The notes beneath the pieces were generated by a model, which saw only the letters and a program-made list of their open reading frames with translations, was not told the origin of the DNA and did not search any database. A stretch of 49,400 nt of DNA. Source: Trichoplax sp. H2 (Eukaryota). Position numbers and translations under genes: made by a program. Of the stretch, positions 3,760 to 49,391 are shown piece by piece (within the stretch, counting starts at the first letter, position 1; each line of letters starts with the position of its first letter). Location of the stretch: NCBI GenBank assembly GCA_003344405.1, contig NOWV01000018.1, positions 806,001-855,400 on the forward strand, written 5' to 3'.

Positions 3760-4552
3760 CGGCTCCTTCGTTGTTCACTGACTAACAAGTAAAACATACT
3801 CTTAACGATAATAGCGAATCAACTAAACAGTTACGATACGAAACATGTCAGCAATTATGTCAAATCTTTAGTAAAATTTCTGAAAAATTACTATTTATCA
3901 ATAATCCTATTCCAGTTCGATGGTATGAAATTCTACAATTACTTCTAGAAGAAAGGGAAGAAAAGACGATAAAGAAGATACTTACTAAGGCAGAAATTAA
4001 AGACTTGATATCCATACATCATTTAGCTGAAGACGGATAGAATATAGATCATTTGTTATCATACTTGCATGATATCGGACAAATTGTCTATTGTGATAAG
4101 GACAAGATTTTAAGTAAAATGATAGTATCAGATATCGATTGGATGATTGAGGTATTTTGTTCATTAATTCAAATTACACTTTTCAAATCTCCTCATACCG
4201 ATGACTGGACAGATTGTGAGAAGATTAAGATTACTGGTAAAATAAGTGAACGATACATTCGACATGTTTGGTTTAAATTTAATCTAGATGACGATCATCG
4301 AAATGATGTATTATCTCTTAGGACTCATTACCATATACTATGTTCAGCAAGTGAATTGAAAGGAAATGATCATATCTATTTTATTCCATATCTTCTTCAT
4401 ACACAACCTAAGGGCGATGAATTATATCCATGGAATAGTGCAAAGTCGAAATGTATCTATTTAGAATTTGATTAGGAAGAGTTACCTAGTATTTCTGATA
4501 TATTTTATTGTTTGATTCCACTATGTAGCAAAGTATTCATATCAACGCAGCC
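3760..4552 (+). pseudogene. Roco-family (Roc-COR) gene fragment, COR domain, with in-frame stops
   Basis: One frame reads ...LFTD*QVKH...FINNPIPVRWYEILQLL...AEDG*NIDHLLSYLHDIGQIVYCDKD...IVSDIDWMIEVF...YFIPYLL...YLEFD*EELPSISDIFYCLIPLC. IPxxW, LxxLHxxGxIxY, IxDxxW and YFIPxLL are typical COR motifs. Stops at 3783-3785, 4038-4040 and 4473-4475 interrupt the homology. Confidence 0.75.
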
Positions 4553-7700: not shown

Positions 7701-10497
7701 ATAACGCTACACATCTTGTTTTCTCGCTTGAGATTGAAATGCAATAATGTGCAACATATGAACACTTTACTTGATTAATATTCATTTTCTCACAATAAAT
7801 AAGCATGATTAATAGCAATGTCCATAATTATATATGGTTGATTAATTTTTAGTCATAAAAATTTAGTTACTGGAAATAAATCTAGATTTAACACATGCAA
7901 TCAATGTAGTATGTATATAATCATATACTCTGGTTTTAAGTTATACGCTCGTATAGTAGAAAATAGGTGATCACACTATAATTTATTGATACTACGCTAC
8001 TAGCGATTTCGTCACGGCTAATTTGTCTAACCATCCCTAATACATTACTTTCTGTCGTATGTATAAGGTAAAATAAATGGATTACTTAGCCTAATCTTAA
8101 CATTTTATTTACATAAAATTGGATCACCCTTTGCTTTATATTTAGTTGAAAATGGACAGTACCGGTACTCCATGAAATAGATATGAATAATGCATGAGAA
8201 TAAATAGACAAGTACATAAAATACGTATATTTACTAAGCAAGAAACTGTAACATGACTAGTGTTATGTGTTAAGATGAATGAATCTGAACTGGGAGTTAA
8301 GCTAAATCATTTATTTTCTTGTTTTCTCAATAGCAAAACTGCAATCTATTTAAGGGAATTCGATTTTAGATTTTATTAATAAAATGAGCATAGTATTATG
8401 ATATTAAGACTAAACAAACTGTTTTATAAATATACGAGCATAGAATTTCTTTTTTCACTTTAGCAATGCATGACTTATTATAGACATGTTAGGTTAAAGG
8501 CAAATAGATACTACTAATTGCATAGCTTAGATGATAATCTAACAATACTGCACATCGCTTATATGCGAGGATACTATTGAAATGATAAGGTTGATCAGTG
8601 CAGAAAAAGATTAATCAACTTGTGGATTATCGCGTCAATGAAATAGATTAACAACCTTAAGAGTAGACATCAGCTTTATTGATATAGCTAGGCCTAATCA
8701 ACACGCTAGCATTTAAATGCAATGGATTGAATATCAGCATTCTTCATGAACAAGCGAATAATTGATGAATAGAAAACAGATTGATCAATCAGCCTAATCG
8801 TAAATTCACCAATAACTAAATAGTCAATACTTTTATCATCGGTTTTCGTAGGTTCAAAGTTATGAAAAGACCTAAATACATAACTCTCACGGTAGTCTTT
8901 AATCCATTTTATCTGTAATCAATTCTTTTATACATTGGATTGAAAGGAATGCATATCAATTAGATATTATCTCGTTAGCGGAGCTGGTATCTTTTCAATA
9001 ACACTATACGTTTATTTACATTTATCAGAATAATTTACTACAGTCGTGAGAAATAATGCAATCTTACATCGTTAGCTAGTCTAATTTAATTGGATTATTA
9101 TCATAACCCTTTCAATTAGGAGCACCTTTAGCTTTCAAAAATGCGTAACATGTACATTGCTTTTGGATCTTCATAGTTTTTGAATCTTGATGTAAATAAA
9201 TGGATAGATTAGTTTCTGTAGCGATTGCGGCCTCAACGAATAATTAATAACACCCATCTGTTCTTTTTATATCCGTTTGTTTCTTTGGCGCGCTATCAAT
9301 TTTTATCGTTTTATTTCACCCTTTATCTGACGTATGATTTATGGATCATAGGTTGGATCTGTTATCCAGTGATGATGCTGATGAATATGTTCTATGTACA
9401 CATTGATGAAAGGTAAAGAATAGGAGAGTGACGACGTCAGAATGTTAACGCATATGTTTAGAAAGCTACCAACAATATTTGTATATCGATGGCATGGATG
9501 ATCAGTGAATTGTATAAACTTCATATTGTTCTCTCTTAACTAGTTGTATAGTACAATTTAGGCAATTAGTTGGAATTGACATCTTTTATATCCGATTGTA
9601 TAAATTACATTTAATTACCTTGGAGTTCATAATGTAAATATGCTGCTATTGGTCCACTTAATCGTTACCTTTATGTCATGTAAAGCTTACTACTACGATA
9701 CTTAACTACTATTCTAAATTGCCGATACGCGTCTACCCATTTTTCTATCCAACATATACAGTAAGATGAGATTACAACGTTGATTACAACTAAGGAATTA
9801 CAGTATTTTCCATCGCATAATAAACAAGAATTAAAATTGTGCCGTATCTAAGTTATCACTTTAGATATCTAATCTTTTTTCAATTATTGGTTTGGAATTG
9901 GATCCTGCATGGGAAGTAATATCCAATGACAACGAAAACAAGTAAGTCAAGATAATAATTAATAGCAAAGAGTAAACATTTTATCGATAAAAAATCGGCC
10001 CCGTTATTCAACTAGCTGCTGTTATACAGCCATCTTGTTAAGACAAAATTACCTATAAAATATATTGGTAGAATAGTAATGGTGACCATTTGGATATGTC
10101 AAGAGAAAGAAAAAACACTCTGTTCTCTAACAATTTCTACTCTGATAATAACGATAAGTTCTCATAAAAATTCTGAGAACTAATTACTGTACAAGTTATT
10201 TTAACTTACTGTACCTCCTAAGCCAAAAAATGATTTCTATTTGCTCTTTGTCTTCAATATTAATGTACCGTGTTTTACTAATCTCCTCGTTGGACATTAA
10301 AAGATGGCCCAGTCTTAATGTATGTAAACTAGGCGTAGAGTGATATAACATTGTCGTGGGAGTAGCGATCGGTAAAGGATGAGTCATAGTGTTTTCATAT
10401 TTGCTACAAAAACTCAGCATGAGCTAAAATTGATACCTTCCAATACCTTTTTTCTTACTCAGAACGTCTTTCTTTGCCTTGATAACTAATTTCCGTT

Positions 10498-15120: not shown

Positions 15121-18100
15121 CGCCAAGACATTACCATTTAATGCCATCCGTGCCTGTCCTAAGGCAGAATGCCAACAACTTACGGACAAAGGAACGGACG
15201 GATGTCTCTCGTCATACGTCATATTCACTCTTCCATGATCGTGTTCTTCTCAGTCGTGTAGATATCGCCATATGATACGCATACTACATTCTTGGCGTTA
15301 TACTGTTCTACTAGTTTGTTACTGACCGTAAGGACGGTACTACCATAGAGTTTTCTTTCAAGAGAAACTCTATGCAAAAAAGCAGAAAGAGGATGAGAAC
15401 AGCTGCGGGGGAGTCCAGTGAGCCCCTGAAGATTCATCAATGCCCTAGTGACGTTCATGGCAACAATTTTGCCTTCTAAAATGGCCAGTCGTCTTTTCTG
15501 AGCAGGAAAGAATCTTTCTAAATATCCTTAATACATCACTAATCAACTTTCTTAAGAGTACAGGATGATGACAAGGTCTAGAGAAATGGATTTGTTTCTT
15601 CTTGATCATCCTACAGTACAGTATTCTCTTATTAACCATGATGCAAGCGTAGACGGGCCGTTGCTTTGACAACCATCATGGACGATTTAGTATTACTCGA
15701 CTGTCAAGAGAGTAAATGATATGATGGCCACCATTTTAATTTATGTATGCCTGTAGCAATGTTACCGTAGAATTTTATGATGAACTTTTCAACATTCCAA
15801 TTAATATCAATAGCACGATTGAACTCAACTAGTTCCAAAAGAGGACAGTCAAAGTAGTGGCATCCCCCGGAAATAACCCCAACTGTAATCATCCTATAGA
15901 TACCACAATTATACAATATCAGTAATCATGGCAGATAGTAAGATGATTACACTTAATTGCTATTCGACAGTTTATTTCATCAAGGAGTATTATCGACCAT
16001 GGCATCCGGATAACAGTTAAACCGTATCAATAATAACAGTCATTACACACCTTAATGCTATCATTGTAATCTAAGCGATTGTCTTAATAGAAAAAATACA
16101 TTTGTTAATGTGTCAAGAAATGGATTGATTGATCGATGCTGGGAAAGAAAAGTAGAAAGCCTGCATCAAAAGGAAATAAGACAAAAACCTTATATAGTTG
16201 AAATAAGACAATATAGTTTAGAAACAATGATTGGATAGTCATCAATGGGTCAAATTGTATAGGTCAAATTAACAACATTGAAAATTGAATCCAATCATCA
16301 ATTTACCGTTCGTATTCTTTTACAGTTATTATGCTAATAGCCAGTAATTGAACAAAATTATAGTCATCAGGGGATATTAATTATTCACATTCAACAGCCA
16401 CGACATCTTTATGAGGAATAATGAAGAGGAATAGTAAGAATAATTTGTTTTGCCAATCTACTCATTTCCAGCTATTGTCAAAAAGACAAAGCAATCCAAG
16501 TCAATTCTCAGCCAGCATCCATATTATTTTTCTCCTTCATGTTGTTACTCGAAGCCTTAGCAGCAGTTGATTTTTTTTTCTTCCATCCTTTGGCTTGCCG
16601 TCAATCTTAGTCTATTTCATTAGACTTTATAACACTTACTCTCCTTGAATGATCACTTTCATGCCGTATTTCATATGTCAACGTCAAGATTAAAGCTACG
16701 AAAACGTTAAGGGCTAATACATAAAAATGTCCCGCACAGGCAAGTTAAATAGATACGTAAAAAAGAATCATTTTCTACCTTCAGTGTTATTTCTATCGTG
16801 CGCATACCAAGAAAAAAGCAAGCGCATAAAAAACAATATCCTAGTTCAATCGAATTGCATCACCTTGAAATTGCCCATAGACGTTCAATGTGCTATTTCA
16901 AACAGACTAAAACTTTCTATCACTTTGATACATCATTTCAAATTACTTTTCGCCACATTTTTACACTTTTCAACAATCTAAATTACGTATCTTCGTGCAA
17001 CAATATCATCCGCCTATCAAAACGATACTATGTCCAACTATTTTTGATTTAGCTATTCAACCTGATGACGTAGCGTTATATGTCTTGATTGCTATCGATA
17101 ACGTAGAATTAAAATAATTGAGGATAAATATAATTAACCTACATTCGAAAATTCGATCACAGTACTTTAGTCAAGTTATTCACTGTAATCAAGAAGAAAG
17201 ACATAACAAAATATATTCTACAAGATCTATAATCTTCTTTATTCTGAAAAGAGAGATCGACTGTTAAGATTACTGTTGGTGTTAATGTTTCAAGATTATT
17301 TAAATTTTGTTTCTTCTTGAGGAACAAATACAAAAAGTTTACACGCACACTATAATGTCTAATATAAACGATATTTAATATTGACAACGGATGAATTTGT
17401 TTAAATACACATCTAGCGCCAAAAGTCAATCCTTAGTTAATAAATAGAATGTTAGTATAACGTGCATTAGTTTCTTCCATTCTCCTTCCAATTTTTTTGA
17501 TAACATGGCCGACTTGATAGAATATAGCCTGCAAGATTAGCCGTTATCAAGTGTTACAACTGGCTAACATTAGCGTTACTTTAATTGTATATCCCATTCC
17601 TTTGATCTTTTACTTCATTTAAACACCTTCACCATTACATGATTATTGAGTAACGATTGTTTCCACTCGGATAACTAATAATACATTAATGTAAAATAAC
17701 ACCGAATACGATAGATTGAAAATGACTTGATTTTTTAGCTAAAGAAGAAAGAGAGTTCTCCTATCATTGGTTGTTCTTTACACATTATTATCAATACCAT
17801 CAAGATGCTCATCACATAAGTAGAAAGCATTGATCCTATCCTGCGACGATATCAGTCTAAATTGGCTTACATAAATCAAGAATAGATTTTGATACATGGT
17901 TTTAGCTATTTAGGATTAGTAAACCCTAATTATATCATCGAGTTAATAACAAGTTTATATTTCATTCCCTATATCACTAAACTCAACACTTTTTAATAAC
18001 AATGACGATAGAGGATGAGAAAAATTTACAACTAGCAACATCACAAGTTTTGTTCATCCTTGAAATTTACAAGCATCTAAACAAGGTTTTGATTAAAAAT

Positions 18101-19890: not shown

Positions 19891-21298
19891 ATATAAAAGT
19901 ACATGAAATTTTAAGCACATTCATATCGATTAACCGTATTGTAAATTCATACTTAAAATATAGCAGTCCATTATACCATTATTAATCTTTTAATATCATC
20001 CTGAGTTATACTGGATATTGAACATATTTCAAAGAATCTTCTCTTACGAAAAAGAAAGATTGTAATGGGAATAAATTATCGAAATTCTCCCGGATTGCTG
20101 CCCATTATAGATTGCAGGAGAATATGCTAAAAACGCATAATATAGACAATACGCTATAACCTATGGCTAGTAATAGAGAAAATCAAATTGGTATATATTA
20201 ATCCTCTTACCTCAATTTGACCACCAGCTGTTGATGTTGACTGCAATCGATCGTGACTATTGAGTTTTAACAAATGTTTGCGAAGTTAAATTCAAAGGAA
20301 ATAATCAATGCACTCATCACTTTTATTCAGTCATTTTCAAAAAAAATCTCAAGCGTTAAGAAGGCAATTGTAATAGGGTAGAATAAATAGATAACTTAAT
20401 ACTTTGAAATAATATCGGAATTAATTCTTAAATCATTGAAAAAAATGCAGCCATGAATAATACTTAAATATTTTAAGCTAAATATGATACAGATTAATAG
20501 AATAAGATCGGTGACCTTTCATTGCTTGGGCGATTAGATCATTGATATGTTTTATTCAATCCTGGAGATTTACTAACCAGTTAAGATGTAAACTAATCAT
20601 TAAAAAGTTAACTTCATGCTATCATACATTAAATGAATCATTTACATTCGAGATGGAATCGACCACAGTAGGTAAAAGAGAAGCTAAAGTTCTTATAAAT
20701 GATGGGCCTTACAACAGTTGTCTTTTTACATGTTAGCAGATTTATCAATGATGACAAAATCTTTTCCTAACTTATCGAGTTAATATCATCTACCCATACA
20801 AGGAGTAAATTTCTGAATAGCAAAGGAAATGGTTTGACACCTCCAATAAATCTAACTGTTTTATATTCCAAGTTGCACTAACATGAAAAACGAATCACTA
20901 GTTGATATCTACTGTATGAATATGCACTCAATTATTTCAACTTGACCCTAGCGGTAGCGAATAAACATGCAGCTGGTAATTCTCGCCAGATTATTTCCAT
21001 TCAATACATCTTGACTCTAAAGTAGTAAATTCTTACAGCTTTTACTGATTAGCAGTCTTATAAAGCAGCGTAAATTCTACAAATAAAAGCTCCAATCTAT
21101 CAATGTCATCGTCTCTATTTTTCCATTTCATTTTCAGCCTTTTTGTATTTATTTCGTGGCCATTGATTTACGAATATCATTTTAATCATGTATGCCTAAA
21201 CAATTCATTCGTTGTTCATCTATTTTATCGATTATCCTAGAACATAGTACCAAAATGAAGTAGGTAGATTAACATAATTGTTTTTCATTCTATTGCAG

Positions 21299-23941
21299 CT
21301 TCGGGCCCTCCGTACATATGCCTTTGCACGCAAAGTTGCAATGCAGCATTAAACGAAAGACGCACATGTACAGCTCAAATTAGCTGTTTTCATAGCATTG
21401 TTAAGAATAATGCCACTGGAGTTATTGAAGAAAATCATGGCTGTTTCGATCATATACTTCAAAGTAAATTTTGTGGCCGCCAAACTCCACTTTCATCGGT
21501 GGTGTGTTGTAAAAGTAATTACTGCAATGATAATGTTCATGGAACTGGAAGCGATAAAATACGTGCTACACTACCAATTACTACACCTACTACAGGTAAT
21601 AAAAGAAGTAAATCATTCATTTTTATTTAGTAAAGTTAATTGCAATTCTATAGCACTGATTGCTCTTTTAATACAAATTAAATGTTAACTGTATGATTTT
21701 ATCTTTCCTAATATCACTTTCTAGCTGCCACAACAGGCCAAAGTATTGGTGGATCGGATGGATTTATGCTTGCGTTAACTATTGTTATTCCTGTCTTAGT
21801 ATTATTACTAGTAGCTGCTATTGCTGTATGGCTTATACGAAGATCGCATCAACGCCATATGAGAGAATTATCGTCAAACAATTTGAAAGATCTAGAATTA
21901 AACCTTAAAGAGCAAGTTCCTTACTACCCACCAGATCGAACAGCAAGGTCGACCACAGATTATACATCGCAGCAAACTGGTATGCAAACAGAAATGACTT
22001 CAGGCAGTGGTTCAGGAGTTCCTCGCCTAGCTACGCGTACATTGGCTAAAGATGTTAAATTATTAAATGTTGTTGGTAAGTAGAGGCCAAGATAATTTGA
22101 AGTTATTGGCTATAATTATTCCATTGGTTTTGACTTTGCTCTTATAAGGCACAAATGTACTCAAAACCCAAAGTGCTAGAAATAGATTTGCATAATACTA
22201 TAAATCGATTTCGATAAGTTTTCCCATCCTAGCATTAAAGTTGCATGACCCTAGATAATGTGTATCTTAAAGATTCCATAAATTGAGATCTAGTAATATC
22301 AGATAGTATTAAAGATCGAAATATCATAAAGTCTTTCATTTGTATTATGGAGTCTTAGCTCAAAGTTTGCTATATCCATTTCTATAAGATACTGCAGTTG
22401 TTATATTTAAGTTATAGAAAACAATGTCGTTCACTTTCGCTTCTAAAGATGGATGAAATTGAACCAGTTTCTTATAAAATGCGATTAGAGAGGCTTTTTC
22501 TAAAGTGTTATGTACTGTATTCTTTCCCGCAGTATCCATTAAAATCAATCAAAAAGTTTATATCAATGATTTAAATTCGCCTTTTCCTCTTCATACTGTT
22601 AATCGATCATTTTCTCACCTATATCTTGATTTGGCTATGATATTATTAGGTAAAGGTCGTTATGGCGATGTTCGTAAAGCTAAGTATCATGGGCAAAAAG
22701 TCGCTGTCAAAATATTTTCTTCGCGCGATGAAAGATCATGGTTACGTGAACGGCACATCTATGAAAACGTCCTTACTCGCCATGAAAATGTACTGTGTTA
22801 TTATGCATCTGATATGACTTCCAGCCAATCCTGCACGCAAATGTGGCTAATGACCCAATATCATGAGAATGGATCATTATATGATTATCTACAACGTCAA
22901 GTACTTGACCCATTAGAGCTGCTACGTTTAGCTTACTCGGCTTCAAGTGGTTTAGCCTACTTACATACAGAAATTGTGGGAACGCACGATAAATTAGCTG
23001 TGGCACATCGTGATGTTAAAAGTAAAAATATTTTAATTATGGACAATGGTAACTGTTGTGTGGCTGACATGGGCCTTGCAGTTACATTTAGTTCTGATCG
23101 TGGAATCCTTAATCTCGGCGATAATCCTAAAGTGGGTACCAAACGTTACATGCCACCAGAAGTTTTAACTGAACGATTCAATCAAGACAATTTTGATTCA
23201 TTCCGCAAAATGGATGTTTACTCATTTGGATTAGTTCTATGGGAGATCGCTAGAAGATGTAAAACAGAATGTAAGTATTCAATGGACGAGAATGAATGAT
23301 ATGGTGAAACTTACTAATTGAATCATCTTACGCTTAAAATGAATAATTAACATCTTCTCATTTCTCCTCTTAATGATATAGATGCCGATGCCGATGAATA
23401 TCAACTGCCTTACTTTGGTAAAGTTCCTAATGATCCTTCGGTCGATGAAATGAGAAAAATAGTGGTTGAAGATAAAATAAGGCCACAAATACCCAAAAGA
23501 CTCAAGAACCATGAGGTAAGCGTATTATTTATTTTGGTCACTCCTAAATCTAACTGTATATCATACCATTAGGATAGGACAGTTTTCGAGATCCGTTATA
23601 GTTTCTATGATAATCCGTAAATTAACAGTCATATTACATCGTTTTTTATGGATAAAATCATTGAAATTAAATCATCTAATTAGATATACAAGATATCATA
23701 CTTAATTAAGAAGGTTGATCAGCGATTATGCCTTTTATTAATTGTATGGTTTCTTTCAATTATTCTATTGATGAAATAGATTTTAAGGCCATACTGTAAA
23801 GTAATTCGAGAATGCTGGAGCGAGAATCCAAGTTCAAGATTGTCCATGCTACGAGTCAAGAAGACATTGATGAAAATGGTCAATAAGCTAGAATTTCAGA
23901 AATCGAAAGATTTGGCATCGAGTAATGAGGCAATAGCGTAA
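21299..23941 (+). CDS. ACVR1: TGF-beta/BMP type I receptor Ser/Thr kinase, ALK1/2 (ACVR1/Saxophone) class; signal-peptide exon not identified
   Basis: Exons 21299-21595 (10-Cys ectodomain ending CCKSNYCN), 21725-22075 ([27 protein letters not shown] box TSGSGSG), 22650-23270 (GKGRYG, VAVKIF, L45 loop [37 protein letters not shown]), 23382-23515 and 23780-23941 (ECW...[14 protein letters not shown]). All junctions are GT-AG and in phase. The ASDMTS L45 loop is diagnostic of ALK1/2. Confidence 0.93.
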
Positions 23942-25617: not shown

Positions 25618-27063
25618 AATTTAAACTACAAATAATCAGTATTGGCGTATAATTTAAACACTGATCAAAATCATTTTGATATAGGTGATTATGTAGCTAC
25701 ATTTTATAAAACATTACTGAGACAAACAGAATCAGGTATCGACAAAACTCTAAGTTTCTAAGAGAAATCCTATGTTCAATTGTTCATTACTCTTTCAACA
25801 TTACTACCAATTTTAAGAAAGAAGGATGACATGTGCTATGTATATCAACATAAAAGTTCCTTTATCGATATCGGACTTTTGGATAAGTTGTGCAGCATAA
25901 CAGTGAAAAACTCAGTAATATTAAATTGATATAAAATTAGTTTTGGGTGCTATTTATTATGTAACTATGCTGACAATGTCTGGTTTCTTTTTCATTACTT
26001 TTAAGTAGCATTACTATCGATAATTCATGGTTACACGTGATTTTAATTCTAAGTAGCACTTGATAATGAGTACCGGTAATTCTTTAGTATTTACAGTTGT
26101 GTGGTTGGTTATAATTTTAACCCAAAGCTTGCAAATGTTAAATGAACGACTGCGAATATCTGTTGATTGCACCCCTTAAGTCAAATGGAACAAATTATAC
26201 ATGATTATTGCATGAACGTACTACCGTAATGATAAGAAATTAAAAATGAACTGCACTTTAGGAATCGTTTTTAAGCCATCATTTTAGCAAGCACTTAAAC
26301 AAGATACAAAATGATTGTAATATGAACTCTTTTATTTTCTAATAGCTAATATTTAATTCAAGGACATGGCAAAATGATGCCGCCTGTATTTTAATATGGT
26401 ACTATTAACACTCATATTTTATAATAAATACTGTTCGCACCAAATCAGACAATATGCAGCTTAGCAACATGTATAGGCAAGGTTGCTAACAGCAGTATCA
26501 TTGCTATATATAAACCATAGAATACTCTATGTACTATCACTGGAATTAATCAAAGGGATTACTTTCCAGGCTCGATGGTACAATTTAAAAGATATGTCAT
26601 TATTAACTAATGTAAGACATTGTTACATCACCAGTCATGAGATAAGTTTTACGAAGCAGAAGTTGCCGCTGCATCAACCATTATATTCGTCACCTATGTT
26701 AACTGCAACACGAATACCCTAACTATGAGAAATTTCTTATCATCGGGGAATTTAAGAAAAGTTTATATTACAAGTTCAAATTCCAGTCAAGCTTGTTTCA
26801 TGCAGAAATATATCCAAAGTAAACTCGCCCATAAGTCCACTCGATTGTTATAAAAACAATATGTTAAAAAGCAACATTCAAATGGTATTCTACTGCAATA
26901 TAAACATTTATATAGTATTAATTCTATATTAATGTCACGATATATGTACAAGACGTGAATACAGCATATATAATATATACAGTAGAAAGTACAAGCTATG
27001 TGCCAGCGAGGTTTAGCAAAACTGTGAAGTTAAGAATCTTGAATTACGAGCATTTTAAACAGT

Positions 27064-30000
27064 TTAAATTTTCATATCTCCGCTATGCAACAGACTATGC
27101 AATGTCTTCTTTACACGCAACACAGGCAGTCTAGATTCATTGTTGTCCGACCAACATTCCCTAATGATCTTGCAAATTGGACTGATGAACTGCATTTCAT
27201 ATAAAAGAACATTTAATTAGGCATTAATGTCTATTTCATCAAAGACGATTCAAAACTACACATGCTTCATGTGAAGGCAGCTACAGCGATATGATACCAA
27301 TATGAAATGGAGATTTATTAATTGACTGTGAACTGTTTTAATAATAACTTTTAAAATAGGCACACTTACCGGGTGAATCTCCCATTCTTTCTTCAAACGA
27401 GGACGTCTCTTACCTACTACAACGACTCTTCTCATCTCTTCTATGCTAGGATCATGGGGTACCATTTCCGAAAAACAAGGCGCATAATCGTCTGGAGTAC
27501 CTACAAGATTGTTATACGCGTATAAAGTTAGATTGAAGCAAATACTCTACCTTATGAGTTTACACAGATAAAATTCAAATTATGAGCGTGAAACCTGTTA
27601 TGTTACTTCGAGACAAAACTTCCCATAACACTAAACCAAATGAATAGATATCCGCATTTTTAAAAGCGTCGAAGCTTCTCATGTTCAGAGTATCTTCTAT
27701 GACTTCCGGAGGCATGTAACGTCTTGTGCCAACTCTCTCGTTAGACGGTATATCAATAGTATTTGATTTTGAATAATAACACACGGCTAACCCCAAGTCT
27801 CCAATTGCACAACTTCCATCTTTCTTTACCAAAATATTATTACTCTTTATATCACGGTGAGCAATAGCTGGTTTTCCTACATCATAAAATTTTACTATTA
27901 TATATCTACAACTAGTTTAACTACATATAACTTACACAAAACGATATAATAATACTTAGTGTAATTGTTTCCTATATTCCTTTACCTCTTATCCCTATCA
28001 TTTCAGTGTGCAGGTGGGCCAATCCACAACAAATTGAATAGGCAATTTTAAATAATGCTTCTTGATTTAAAGTGGTGTCGGATAGGTAATTAAATAAAGA
28101 TCCGTTTTCATGATACTCAGTTATTAGCCATAATTCTGTACATGTGCCAGCGTCCTTGTTATCCGCGGCTATGAACCGAAGAATGTTTTCATGTTGAAGC
28201 ATAACTACACGATTATAAAAAGTATAGCATTGTATGTCAATTGGGATATTGGAGATATCCTTAAAGCAATAGTGTAAATATTCACGTAATACTTTGTCAA
28301 TTAATCTCTAACTACAGCTTACCAGTTTGATAAATTCTAACTTCTCTCGACCAAGAAGCCTCTTCCTTTGATGTGAAAATTTTAACAGCGACATTATCGC
28401 CATGAAGATTTCCCAAATATACTGCACCATATCGGCCTTTTCCAATTGCCGGATACGATATTTTTGTCTTCTTAGCAACCGTCTCTTGCTCCATTATGCG
28501 TGAAATACCATTACGTGGGTCCATTGGTAAGGCAGAAGATCCCACACTGCTTGTTGACGCCCTTCTGCTTTCGGCCACGTTAGTAGGAGGTGGAAAGCAA
28601 AAATTCTGAATTGTTGCTAAAATTCGCTTCTTATTGGTTGTACCAGCTTCACCGTTTTCAAAATCACAGTCGCTAGAACCGTTGCGTCTTCTCCACCAAA
28701 TAATAATAACGCCGACCAAGATAGCTAAAAAACCAACTGATATTATAATCGCTATTACACTACTATCGGGATCCGTCGGCATTGATGTTGGATAATCACT
28801 CGAGGATTCGGTACTGTTCAATCTAGAAACTGTACCAGCGGTACCTATAGTATAGTGATATAAACAAAAGCAGACTACAGTAAATTTTTGGACTATAACT
28901 ACGCTCGTAAGTTCCGTCAAAATTTTTGTTACCAGGAGTAGTAGTTATCGATGAAGTTCCGTTAATTTTATTGCAAAATTCAGAGTAGCAGCATTTGCCA
29001 TACTTGGCAGTTAGTAACTTGCACTTTAGAGTCATATGATCTAAAGGATCTGAAGGGTTGCCAGAAGTTCGATTAAAGCAGCCAGCTACCCACAGTGAGC
29101 CTTCTAATTGTTGGTAGTCGTAATAACAAGCACCGTCAGTATAACAAACATTTCCAAAGCATTGTTGCCCTTCTTCGGATACTCTCTTAATACAATGGCA
29201 CGGGAAGGCTTTTTTACCTAAGTGGGAGTATAATAGTATAATAAAAAGCTGTAATATCTAAAAAGTATAAGTATCTAAGAAAAAATGCTAATTCAAAGTG
29301 GCATAAAAAAGCGAACTTAAGCTATACTAAAAAACATAATATAATACTCTGGCTAACAAGGAATGAAGTCTACGATACTGTAAGAGGCTGTAATGATAAA
29401 ATTTTTAAATCTCTAAAAAATTAGAACTTTGATAGAGTTCATTACTAGTATGAATGGTAGATAAACAGTACAATCATACGATATACGTATAATGAATTAT
29501 ACCAGTGTATTACACAAAGTACGTAAAAAGATATAGGGAAATTTTATCAGTAATAACTATCAATAATTCTTATTCTCTCGCAGTAATATGCAAAAGTCGT
29601 GCCTCGAATATCAACTATTGGATTGTATTTTCAGAAATCCTTATATATTCGTTTATACATACGACAGATACAGAAATATTTAATAAGATTTAATTCTATA
29701 CTATATCTAAGTAGTCAGCTCTACTGTACAAAGGTTATTTGACCAGTTTTTATATACTTTTACAGTAGCGTAAAAAGAAATCCATTGACTCTGAGTACTG
29801 TGTAGTATACCGTGCTATATCCGTTCAACATTAGATATAGTTTATATTAGTTCTAAATTATTTGCTATATAACTGAAAATTGAATACTTAACATTACAGT
29901 ATTGATAGATACCAATACTAATGATGCATAATATAGTACGCGAAAATAAGCTACGCATGCATTTACAGGATTAAATTCAACAATAGTAATGATATGGTTT

Positions 30001-42714: not shown

Positions 42715-42818
42715 TTCATTAAATTGATAAAAAAATAATCAGCCATTACACTCCTTCGCAAATCACTTTAGCTCATATTTCCATCTCGGCATCTATAGTA
42801 GCAGAAAGCGATAACAAA

Positions 42819-45703
42819 ATGGAATCGAAAAGATCTAGTAACGATATAGTTTTAGTCAGTATAGACGAAGATCGAGAAAGTTCGAATGAAAATGGTACTG
42901 TGACTTATCATACTTCTACAAGGTCATCCCTTGAAAATAACGTAGACACAGAAAATAGTAATAATAGATTTGGCGTTGACGACGGCATCAGATCAGTTTC
43001 AAATTCTAACAATCCAATTATCATCGCTATTAAACCAATTTTATGCATATTAAAAGTATTTGGCGTGTACTATTCGGTTCCAGATAACAGTAATGTTATC
43101 AATACGCATTATGACGATTGCCGAAGTGCAATGTTAGCCGACTGTCAACTAAAAAAGAAACGAACAAGAAGAACTATCTTCACTCCTTTGCGACTTTATT
43201 CCCTAGCGGTTTGTTTTTTACTGTGGATTAATGCAGGACGATTCGGGGCTAATGTTTTTATATATCAAAATACATCTTGGATGCCATTTGTTATATTATA
43301 CGTTCTATGGCTTTTCCAAGTAGCAGGCAATGTATCTCTTTATTATTATATGTGCCATCGTAAGTTGCCGATACTCTTTAACCACATTAGTAAGATACAA
43401 AGTAACGAATGTCAAGACTTTTTAGCTTGTATCGGGCGTTATACTAGAAAACGATGTATCTATTTTCTGATTCCGGCGACGATCTTTGCCTCTATAAATA
43501 TCGTGTTTCCTATATTCTCTCAATTTGGTCCAATTACAGAATTGAGAGTTGTAATGGATGTGATAAATAGTCCATGGCAAAATTCTACTGTCTTTCCCTA
43601 CGTGTACATATTTGCAATTCACGTCTATTGTACAATAGCATGGATCTATCCAATGGTTCTATTTTGTTTATGCTGCTTGATAATGGCCCATAAATTCCAT
43701 ACCTTAACTAAACGCTTTAAAAAGGCGATTCTACGGAATAACAGCGATATTATCCGGACTCTAGCGATTTATCGAGAACAACATCAAGCGTACTGTGTTA
43801 TAACAGAATTACTTTCAGATACTTTCTCATTATTTATAGGTTACTTATACGTTACAAACCTTGCAAAAGCTTGCTTTAATTTATATCGCCTAATTTTTAA
43901 CTGGAGTGTAAATGGTTTGTTAATGAACATTACATTAATAATATGGTTCATTGCTACTACTGGTATGACTATAATAACTTCATGGGTTGCTTCTATTCTT
44001 AATGCAGAGGTACAGTATAACAATATTACACTAAACAAGTAATACGATGAAGTTTATTCTCTATTATTATTTCAATATATACGAATTCGAAGTTCGTCAA
44101 GAACGAGTACGCTTACAATACACTAAATTATCATGTTATCGATTTGTATCTATATAATCAATACTTATAATATTGTTAAATATATTAAACATAAAAATAC
44201 AAAAACTTGAATAATGATGTAAATAGACTCGTAAAATTGTTATCTAAATTTAGACAATTTCGACTTCCCTTTCGAAGTAACTAAGATTTATCGCTTAGTA
44301 TTCCGTTACGCTAGATTTGATTTAATGGTATTTTATTGTAATAAATATTCTTAGGCACATTCTCCAATATCAGTGTTATACTCTCTACAAACTCGAAATA
44401 TTGGTAACGACGGATTAGCAGAGGTAAGCTTTATCGCAATTTCTACATAAGTAATAACATAAAATCAAGTTAAAGTATATACTGTAAACATATTACTTTA
44501 TGTCGTATTGTACTATTTCGCAGTCACTCATAACATTATCGTATGTAGCTTATCAGTAAAATTACTTTTATTTTCTATTAATTATAATAAATTAGCTAAT
44601 GCATTACCAGTATTGAATATGCAGACAAAGTAATAGCAAATGATTGTAGGAAACAGTGAAGACTGTAGGCGCTATAAATAAATTAACATAACAAACTATA
44701 TTTGAGTATAATTGAAATAGACTGTAAAGCTATCTATATTCGGTATAATACAAGATGTCTATATTTAATTAAGAATATGTTACAGACTACAGTGAAATCT
44801 AAATACACTGCAATCAATAACTCAAGATATTGTCTATATGTAGATGGTAGCAATTTATTAACGATCGTTTATAACTGTATAAGATTAAATAAGTAATATT
44901 TCTTTAAAGCTGATCTAGTAAAATTCTAATAAAATTCAATTTTCTATAGTTGCTCCTATTTCAATCTCGCCTTCTAGCAGAACCCATTGGTATCAGTATT
45001 GTTGGAATGTTTGTGATAACAAGATCTTTGATTTTAACAGTAAGTGTTACCTACATTTCTTAAGATGTATTATTACAACTAACTAGGTACATTTTCAGAT
45101 CTCTATTTACAATTCTTTCTCATTACTGTTTATATTTATATAATGGGCGAGATATCGCAGTTTATGTCTAAAGTATAGTTTCTTTAGTGAGAAATATATG
45201 GGATTGAATTTAGTTGTCTTTACTGCGGTAGCTATCTTATGTAGGTACTAATAGGCGATATGGACTGCAGCTAATATTAATATTAATTCTATTTCGACCT
45301 TAACTTAAAATATTAGAAAAGATCCATTACATACATTCAGTTACGCCATTACCCAATAAAGTGATTTTAAGATTGTGGCATCAAAACTTAGTATACATTA
45401 CGTATAAGTATATAATTACATAGTACGTATATAATATAGGAGTATTAAGTCGGTAAGCCTGAGTCTCTTTCTAGATTCGCATGATTATACTGTCAATTAT
45501 CGTTTTATCAGAATAAGTTAAAATGAATGATATATGTAATTAATTAGCTGTTAGACTACTAGGTCTTCTGTGACTGTAATATATATCTTTACGGATATCT
45601 TTGATAACGCGATAGTAATCTTTATATTTTATTTTTTCTAAAGTTGCTAGGTATTTTTGTTACCTACTTCTTTCTTTTAGCGCAGCTACATGGAAAGGCT
45701 TAA
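42819..45703 (+). CDS. Grl: Gustatory receptor-like protein (GRL, 7TM ion channel superfamily), 469 aa (here GRL-A)
   Basis: Exons 42819-44009, 44355-44423 (AHSPISVLY...), 44950-45039 (LLLFQSRLLAEPIGISIVGMFVITRSLILT) and 45644-45703 (LLGIFVTYFFLLAQLHGKA*). Multiple TM helices, a C-terminal TYhhhhhQ motif and three phase-0 introns at the 3' end are hallmarks of GR/GRL genes. Confidence 0.92.
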
Positions 45704-47734: not shown

Positions 47735-47819
47735 TTGATGAAACAATAATCAGTCATTACGACCCTTCGTAAATCACTTTAACTCACACTTCTATATAGT
47801 TGCAGAAAGCGACAACAAA

Positions 47820-49391
47820 ATGAAATCGAATAAATTTAGTAATGATATAGTTCCACTTAACATAAATGAAGATCGAAAAAATTCGGATAAAAGTGGGACT
47901 ATAGCTCGTCATATTTCTACAAGATCATCCCTTGAAAATAACGTAGACACGGAAAATAGTAATAATAGATTTGGCATTGACGACGGCATCAGACCTATTA
48001 CAAATTCTAACGATCCAATTATCATCGCTATTAAACCAATTTTATGCATATTAAAAGTATTTGGCATCTATTATTCGAATCGTGAACATCGAACTTCAAT
48101 GTTAGCCGACTGTCAACTAAAAAAGAAGCGATCAAGAAAGACTTTTTTCACGCCTTTACGAATTTATGGCTTGGCGGTTTGCCTTGTGCTATGGATCAAT
48201 ACAGGACGATTCTGGGCTAATATTTTTACATATCAAAATACATCTTGGATGCCATTTGTTATATTATACGTTCTATGGCTTTTCCAAGTAGCAGGCAATG
48301 TATCTCTTTATTATTATATGTGCCATCGTAAGTTGCCGATACTCTTTAAGCACATTAGTAAGATACAAAGTAACGAAAGTCAAGACTTTTTAGCTTGTAT
48401 CGGGCGTTATACTAGAAAACGGTGTATCTATTTTCTGATTCCGGCGACGATCTTTGCCTCTATTAATATCGTGTTTCCTATATTCTCTCAATTTGGTCCA
48501 ATTACAGAATTGAGAGCTGTAATGGATGTGATAAATAGTCCGTGGCAAAATTCTACTGTCTTTCCCTACGTGTACATATTTGCAATTCACGTCTATTGTA
48601 CAATAGCATGGATCTATCCAATGGTTCTATTTTGTTTATGCTGCTTGATAATGGCCCATAAATTCCATACCTTAACTAAACGCTTTAAAAAGGCGATTCT
48701 ACGGAATAACAGCGATATTATCCGGACTCTAGCGATTTATCGAGAACAACATCTAGCGTACTGTGTTATAACAGAATTACTTTCAGATACTTTCTCATTA
48801 TTTATAGGTTACTTATACGTTACAAACCTTGCAATAGCTTGCTTTAATTTATATCGCCTAATTTTTAACTGGAGCGTAAATGGTTTGTTAATGAACATTA
48901 TACTAATAATATGGTTCATTGCTACTACTGGTATGACTATAATAATTTCATGGGTTGCTTCTATTCTTAATGCAGAGGTACAGTATAACAATATTACACT
49001 AAACAAGTAATACGATGAAGTTTATTCTCTATTATTATTTCAATATATACGAATTCGAAGTTCGTCAAGAACGAGTACGCTTACAATACACTAAATTATC
49101 ATGTTATCGATTTGTATCTATATAATCAATACTTATAATATTGTTAAATATATTAAACATAAAAATACAAAAACTTGAATAATGATGTAAATAGACTCGT
49201 AAAATTGTTATCTAAATTTAGACAATTTCGACTTCCCTTTCGAAGTAACTAAGATTTATCGCTTAGTATTCCGTTACGCTAGATTTGCTTTAATGGTATT
49301 TTATTGTAATAAATATTCTTAGGCACATTCTCCAATATCAGTGTTATACTCTCTACAAACTCGAAATATTGGTAACGACGGATTAGCAGAG
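47820..49391 (+). CDS. Grl: Gustatory receptor-like protein (GRL-B), tandem paralogue; continues beyond the window end
   Basis: Exon 1 47820-48977 (386 codons, donor GAG|GTACAG); exon 2 49323-49391 is identical to GRL-A exon 2. The window ends in intron 2. Confidence 0.9.

Follow-up and report, generated by a model that had tools for sequence, protein, structure and literature searches.

Gene structure and expression at the locus

The window (the whole 49,400-nt stretch of Trichoplax sp. H2 DNA analysed) carries two type I receptor genes arranged tail to tail. The gene on the + strand, which contains the GS-domain codon considered here, has six exons and is spliced and expressed, with a frame that is open over five spliced exons. 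The features to which we refer are as follows.

9926–9941, + strand: coding end of exon 1a, an alternative first exon (ATG at 9926, GT donor after 9941)
16727–16739, + strand: coding end of exon 1b, an alternative first exon (ATG at 16727, GC donor after 16739)
21299–21595, + strand: exon 2, cysteine-rich ligand-binding ectodomain (Pfam Activin_recp)
21725–22075, + strand: exon 3, transmembrane segment (about 21763–21837), juxtamembrane region and GS domain (gene model, RNA junctions)
21997–22062, + strand: GS loop (TSGSGSG) and equivalent of the alpha-GS2 helix (translation, Pfam, PDB alignment)
22024–22026, + strand: Arg codon at the position of ALK2 Phe-198, an FKBP12-pocket contact (alignment to ACVR1)
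22051–22053, + strand: GAT, Asp at the position of ALK2 Gln-207 (translation, PDB alignment, MAFFT column)
22650–23270, + strand: exon 4, G-loop, beta1-beta2 hairpin V-R-K-A-K-Y, catalytic Lys, L45 loop, HRD, DMG and activation segment
23382–23515, + strand: exon 5, kinase C-lobe (RNA junctions)
23780–23941, + strand: exon 6, last part of the kinase domain, with the stop codon (gene model, RNA contigs)
26742–29217, − strand: neighbouring type I receptor gene in tail-to-tail orientation (five introns in RNA contigs, gene model, tree)

Part of the receptor stretch is contained in 20 of the 23 public-run rows listed for it, 13 of them with half or more of its words; these rows come from six studies, and three are recorded as RNA. 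Junctions were checked in the contigs of four runs (X4, X7, X9 and X13) from four studies bearing two near-identical organism labels. X4 alone is recorded as RNA, while X7, X9 and X13 were taken as RNA by guess and probably are, since their contigs are intron-less. The junctions 21595/21725 and 22075/22650 were seen in all four runs, the latter with a synonymous T>C at 22651 in three of them. Junctions 23270/23382 and 23515/23780 were seen in three of the four, X4 having no cover there, which is no sign of absence. Past exon 6, the RNA contigs extend into a 3′ UTR up to about 25124.

The Asp codon to which the earlier note had drawn attention lies in an exon present in the spliced contigs of all four runs and is unchanged in at least three. 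Across 21723–22076, the sole difference between X4, X7 or X13 and the window is 21914 A>G (Gln to Arg), distant from the GS helix, and the Asp codon is the same in all three; X9 has one difference somewhere in 21723–22074 and is left out of this count. The frame is open over five spliced exons, RNA contigs from four studies contain the junctions, and the codon is stable in at least three runs; that the observation stems from faulty assembly, a pseudogene or non-coding sequence is a negligible possibility.

In all four runs, one contig starts to fit the window at 22313 and a contig ceases to fit it at 23673, both intronic positions, with identical unlike letters beyond. These letters gave no match elsewhere within the window and may come from a further copy, a different transcript or the border of a mobile element.

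At the 5′ end, the loose letters of the X4 and X13 spliced contigs match 9918–9941 exactly (exon 1a), and those of X7 and X9 match 16711–16736 exactly (exon 1b). Both variants start four to five codons ahead of exon 2 and have an in-frame stop upstream (TAA at 9917–9919 for exon 1a and at 16715–16717 for exon 1b), so that neither encodes a signal peptide. Consistently, the maximum KD over the first 50 residues of the receptor is 1.03, as given by a crude hydrophobicity scan only. A hydrophobic N-terminus is likewise missing from six of the 12 ACVR1-like homologues inspected, namely the models from Gigantopelta, Tubulanus, Lineus, Owenia, Antedon and Lingula. A candidate signal-peptide exon at 21103–21189 was rejected, as its phase is incompatible with exon 2 and the RNA contigs show other first exons.

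The neighbouring receptor gene (26742–29217, −) also appears in spliced form in these RNA contigs, and its L45 loop is of the ALK4/5/7 type. It has a degenerate GS loop with an insertion and no SGSGSG, and its 5′ exon or exons lie beyond 29217. Elsewhere in the window, 42723–44042 and 47742–49010 (+) are two intronless paralogous ORFs of about 400–440 residues with a multi-pass membrane look, neither of which matched a Pfam family, and the ORF at 4041–4475 (+) has a COR-A (Roc/COR) match of 32.9 bits, slightly below the cut-off of 35.3.

A receptor of the ALK1/ALK2/Saxophone subfamily

The predicted protein has all the parts of a type I receptor: an ectodomain, a GS motif, a complete kinase and a single transmembrane segment followed by basic residues on the cytoplasmic side. 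The ectodomain in exon 2 matches Pfam PF01064 (Activin_recp; E value 1.6e-6, 29.4 bits, cut-off 20.9), and the GS motif in exon 3 matches PF08515 (TGF_beta_GS; 23.5 bits, cut-off 21.3), with TSGSGSG read directly as intact. The transmembrane helix, also in exon 3, is the hydrophobic maximum of the protein (KD 3.58, 11-residue window) and is followed by R-R-S-H-Q-R-H. Exon 4 returned Pfam Pkinase (E value 1.6e-29), and all catalytic motifs are present (G-loop, the Lys of VAVK, HRD, DxG and activation segment), with DMG in place of DLG and PPE in place of APE. Residues 1–203 of exon 4 align without gaps to the ALK1 and ACVR1 chains (275 bits), ahead of BMPR1B (265) and TGFBR1 (255).

The L45 loop determines Smad choice, the ALK1/2 type selecting Smad1/5. 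That of the receptor is of the ALK1/2 type (ASDMTS...TQ), where vertebrate ACVR1/ACVRL1 rows read ASDMTSRNSSTQ. In a FastTree phylogeny of 126 rows, the receptor groups with named ACVR1, ACVRL1 and Sax-type proteins in a clade of 46 rows (support 97), and reduced IQ-TREE runs recovered the ALK1/ALK2/Saxophone clade with 97–98 SH-aLRT. The ALK1/2-like identity assigned earlier from the letters alone is thus upheld, and the gene encodes a genuine Sax/ALK2-type receptor of the BMP branch and is expressed.

The nearest named proteins are 60–65 % identical to the receptor. Quick trees placed the receptor beside mollusc ACVR1 (97–98 SH-aLRT), a placement we rejected as unreliable because a constrained tree holding 21 bilaterian ACVR1 rows together without the receptor was 33.6 lnL better (p-AU 0.89). 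A protein atlas yielded generic kinase clusters only, a metagenome scan returned no relative above 63 % identity, and a search for exon-3 orthologues in related species at similar lengths gave 92 candidates, none of which scored. Two fragments of about 90 % identity (P0122 and P0272) begin downstream of the GS region.

The receptor shares with human ACVR1/ALK2 (and ACVRL1/ALK1) its domain order, a GS helix and kinase that align without gaps and an ALK1/2-type L45 loop. It differs from ALK2 in having Arg in place of Phe-198 and Lys in place of Arg-375, in the absence of a signal peptide from the two transcripts seen and in the residues R, K, A, K and Y in place of Trp-223, Arg-224, Gly-225, Ser-226 and Trp-227. 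Its subfamily placement is the same as that of Drosophila Saxophone and of the Trichoplax protein 'TaSax'; the available portion of Huminiecki 2009 (PMC2657120) lists the Trichoplax type I receptors as one Sax-like ('TaSax'), one Tkv-like and one Babo-like, and makes no mention of the GS-domain residue. In the window, a Sax-like gene and a Babo-like one are neighbours.

The GS helix and natural variation at the Gln-207 site

Residue numbers (Leu-196, Pro-197, Phe-198, Arg-202, Arg-206 and Gln-207) follow human ALK2 as given in the accessible text of Chaikuad 2012 (PMC3481300). Translation confirmed the GS motif on the + strand and its GAT (Asp) codon. The earlier note had also aligned this motif without gaps to human ALK2, with Asp at Gln-207 and Lys at Arg-206, and a phmmer search against PDB chains bore this out (3h9r_A). 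In that search with exon 3, Asp is paired with the Q of 'ARQ' and Lys with its R, and the match is also gapless to BMPR1B and TGFBR1; the E values are weak (0.1–1) as only about 27 residues are aligned. The top-scoring chain, 6eix_A, reads 'ARE' at that spot, that is, E at the 207 site. An acidic residue (Asp) is therefore present at the Gln-207/Thr-204 position, and the reported change of the FKBP12-contact motif LPF to V-P-R was equally evident in the alignment to ACVR1.

Of the changes around this site, Arg at position 198 is the rarest, occurring in one of 126 rows (any polar or charged residue, 17/126). Val at 196 is found in 11 rows, and Pro-197 is kept here as in 97 of the 126. Lys at 206 is common (28/126) and occurs in human BMPR1B. 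The receptor keeps Arg-202, a basic residue at 206, Asp-269, Met-270 and the TSGSGSG acceptor sites; ALK2 Trp-227 is Tyr, and ALK2 Arg-375 is Lys. Read from these residues, the predicted receptor retains the phospho-acceptor loop and two internal brakes, with two putative FKBP12 contacts changed.

We scored the 207 site in other receptors as the residue that lies eight positions ahead of the glycine of the G-loop, requiring both a G-loop motif and an upstream GS-like motif. Among the 150 best cluster representatives (50 % identity), 114 were scorable and had Q in 78 cases, D in 13, E in eight and T in four, the rest being I (3), S (2), H (2), A (2), R (1) and L (1); the remaining 36 lacked a G-loop motif (16) or a GS motif (20). 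The 120 closest proteins, mostly bilaterian ACVR1/ACVRL1, gave a narrower picture (106 scorable: Q 101, S 4, E 1, D 0). The site is thus near-fixed as Q in close bilaterian ACVR1/ACVRL1 orthologues, and Asp is unusual for this subfamily. The MAFFT column of the 126 tree rows, a set enriched by six nematode rows added on purpose, has Q in 90 rows, D in 17, E in 10 and T in two, with seven singletons. Of 19 metagenome loci, 13 could be scored (Q 9, N 2, D 1, E 1).

On a tree built without the trait columns, Asp required at least seven changes, and Asp or Glu at least 15, spread across the BMPR1, ACVR1 and TGFBR1 clades. Natural carriers include, for Asp, an ACVR1-like protein of Argiope bruennichi and a protein of Ostertagia and, for Glu, an ACVR1-like protein of Paralvinella, proteins of Potamilus and Macrostomum and a TGFBR1-like protein of Hydractinia. 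Among invertebrate type I receptors, an acidic residue (Asp or Glu) recurs naturally at the 207 site. A literature search, with subscription papers and supplementary alignments outside its reach, found no remark on natural Asp at this site.

A type I receptor of Macrostomum lignano (P0251) reads V-P-K at 196–198 and A-K-E-V at 205–208, and so has in common with the window receptor the pairing of a basic residue at 198 with an acidic one at 207.

A search seeded with the Ostertagia protein led to the nematode SMA-6 family. Among the first 70 relatives listed, 43 were scorable and 34 of these have Asp. One of them (P0387) is Caenorhabditis elegans SMA-6 itself (NP_495271.1, Q09488, by exact look-up), in which Asp is the wild-type residue. 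According to the available part of Gumienny 2010 (PMC2873917), DBL-1 signals via SMA-6 and DAF-4, and body size is highly sensitive to the dose of the pathway: animals with reduced dbl-1 signalling reach 55–85 % of wild-type length, and extra dbl-1 raises length to 125 %. An Asp receptor therefore functions in a ligand-dependent pathway, an outcome that the earlier note had itself set down as counting against its inference.

SMA-6 and its nematode orthologues resemble the window receptor in being BMP-branch type I receptors with a natural Asp in the same column. Both also have the hairpin V-R-K-A-x-Y (V-R-K-A-L-Y in SMA-6 and V-R-K-A-K-Y at 22673–22690, +, in the window), where ALK2 has V-W-R-G-S-W; as only two lineages share it, this may be a coincidence. 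Unlike the window receptor, SMA-6 belongs to the BMPR1/Tkv side of the tree, has Q-A-A-L replacing the L-P motif and has a divergent L45 loop. The analogy is thus an indirect one, as it crosses subfamilies.

We also considered compensation, in which an acidic 207 (Asp or Glu) would accompany either the absence of Trp-227 or a basic 223. As a raw count, 47 of 48 Asp carriers lack Trp-227. Once relatedness was controlled using independent pairs on the tree, no association was found for either 227 or 223 (five to nine pairs, too few, median p = 1), which leaves the idea unsupported.

FKBP12 contacts and the regulation of the receptor

In human ALK2, acidic forms of residue 207 are the engineered Q207D and the disease variant Q207E; in the window receptor, Asp is the wild type. 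The earlier note had proposed that a receptor with this Asp may have high basal Smad1/5 signalling or escape inhibition by FKBP12. The structural groundwork of that proposal (an ALK1/2-like receptor, the gapless alignment and V-P-R) holds, and its reading of Asp as a sign of ligand-independent signalling is not supported, since Asp is natural in 13 of 114 representatives, requires at least seven changes on the tree and is the wild type in the ligand-dependent SMA-6. As other invertebrate receptors, SMA-6 included, normally have this Asp, its presence here is probably no more than ordinary natural variation, and ligand-independent signalling by this receptor is unlikely.

The reading we favour, though with some reserve, is that the receptor is ordinarily regulated and that its Asp is one of several natural states of a site that varies where the GS helix ends, and no switch-on mutation. 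Like SMA-6 with the same Asp, such a receptor would still depend on ligand to bring it together with a type II receptor and on phosphorylation of the GS loop. By analogy with SMA-6, and given the retained brakes, ligand dependence is most likely. Telling against this reading are the near-fixation of Q in close bilaterian orthologues, the effects of Q207D in human ALK2, the joint change of two FKBP12 contacts and the different subfamily of SMA-6.

The brakes in question have been described for human ALK2. As set out in the accessible text of Chaikuad 2012 (PMC3481300), FKBP12 is bound chiefly through the inserted GS2 helix, of which Phe-198 and Leu-199 occupy the FK506 pocket; Gln-207 bonds with Glu-55 of FKBP12 and with Trp-227 of ALK2, and Arg-202 and Arg-206 bond with Asp-269. 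An 'electrostatic lock' between Arg-375 and Asp-354 of the activation loop, with Arg or Lys conserved in all type I receptors, is reported in the part of Botello-Smith 2017 (PMC5578689) available. The Q207D form of human ALK2 shows weaker FKBP12 binding and a moderately raised basal kinase activity, as stated in the available portions of Groppe 2023 (PMC10376983) and of PMC3481300.

Against this background, a receptor that remains dependent on its type II partner may nevertheless have a weakened brake, with Arg-198 and Asp-207 weakening or abolishing FKBP12 docking and loosening the packing of the GS domain on the N-lobe, such that basal activity would be raised and the threshold for activation lowered. 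We regard this possibility as tentative and distinctly less probable than ordinary regulation. Two FKBP12 contacts (198 and 207) are altered together. Position 198 belongs to the pair that enters the FK506 pocket, and an acidic residue at 207 should repel Glu-55 of FKBP12, as judged from the accessible text of PMC3481300; the Q207D kinase, in the portion of PMC10376983 at hand, binds FKBP12 less well. Arg-198, the rarest change in the alignment and unique among its 126 rows (polar or charged residues, 17/126), keeps weak FKBP12 braking plausible, and Trp-227 is replaced by Tyr. However, Val at the Leu-196 position with Pro-197, the phosphorylation sites of the GS loop and the Lys/Asp lock are all intact, and SMA-6, which is without the L-P motif altogether, still functions in a ligand-dependent pathway.

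A stronger form of the same argument is doubtful at best. Loss of both FKBP12 docking side chains (Phe-198 to Arg and Gln-207 to Asp), together with a negative charge built in where the GS helix ends, would in that case produce a high tonic level of signalling independent of ligand concentration. If this were true, a whole class of invertebrate receptors with Asp or Glu, SMA-6 included, would be held by a looser auto-inhibitory clamp than textbooks describe for vertebrates.

Least probable of these functional readings, and in our estimation very unlikely, is that the receptor is truly constitutive, its Asp acting as in engineered caALK2 so that Smad1/5 would be phosphorylated without ligand and BMP signalling would be tonic. 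The position of the Asp is identical to that of the Q207D substitution, and a simple animal with BMP signalling free of ligand control would be remarkable. Yet the same residue is the wild type in the SMA-6 pathway, which responds to ligand dose, and the phospho-acceptor loop of the GS domain, for which a constitutive kinase would have no need, is perfectly kept.

A residue that textbooks call 'constitutively activating' is a recurrent wild-type state in invertebrates, and one of its carriers is genetically ligand-dependent. This cautions against projecting the positions of gain-of-function substitutions in vertebrate receptors onto distant orthologues.
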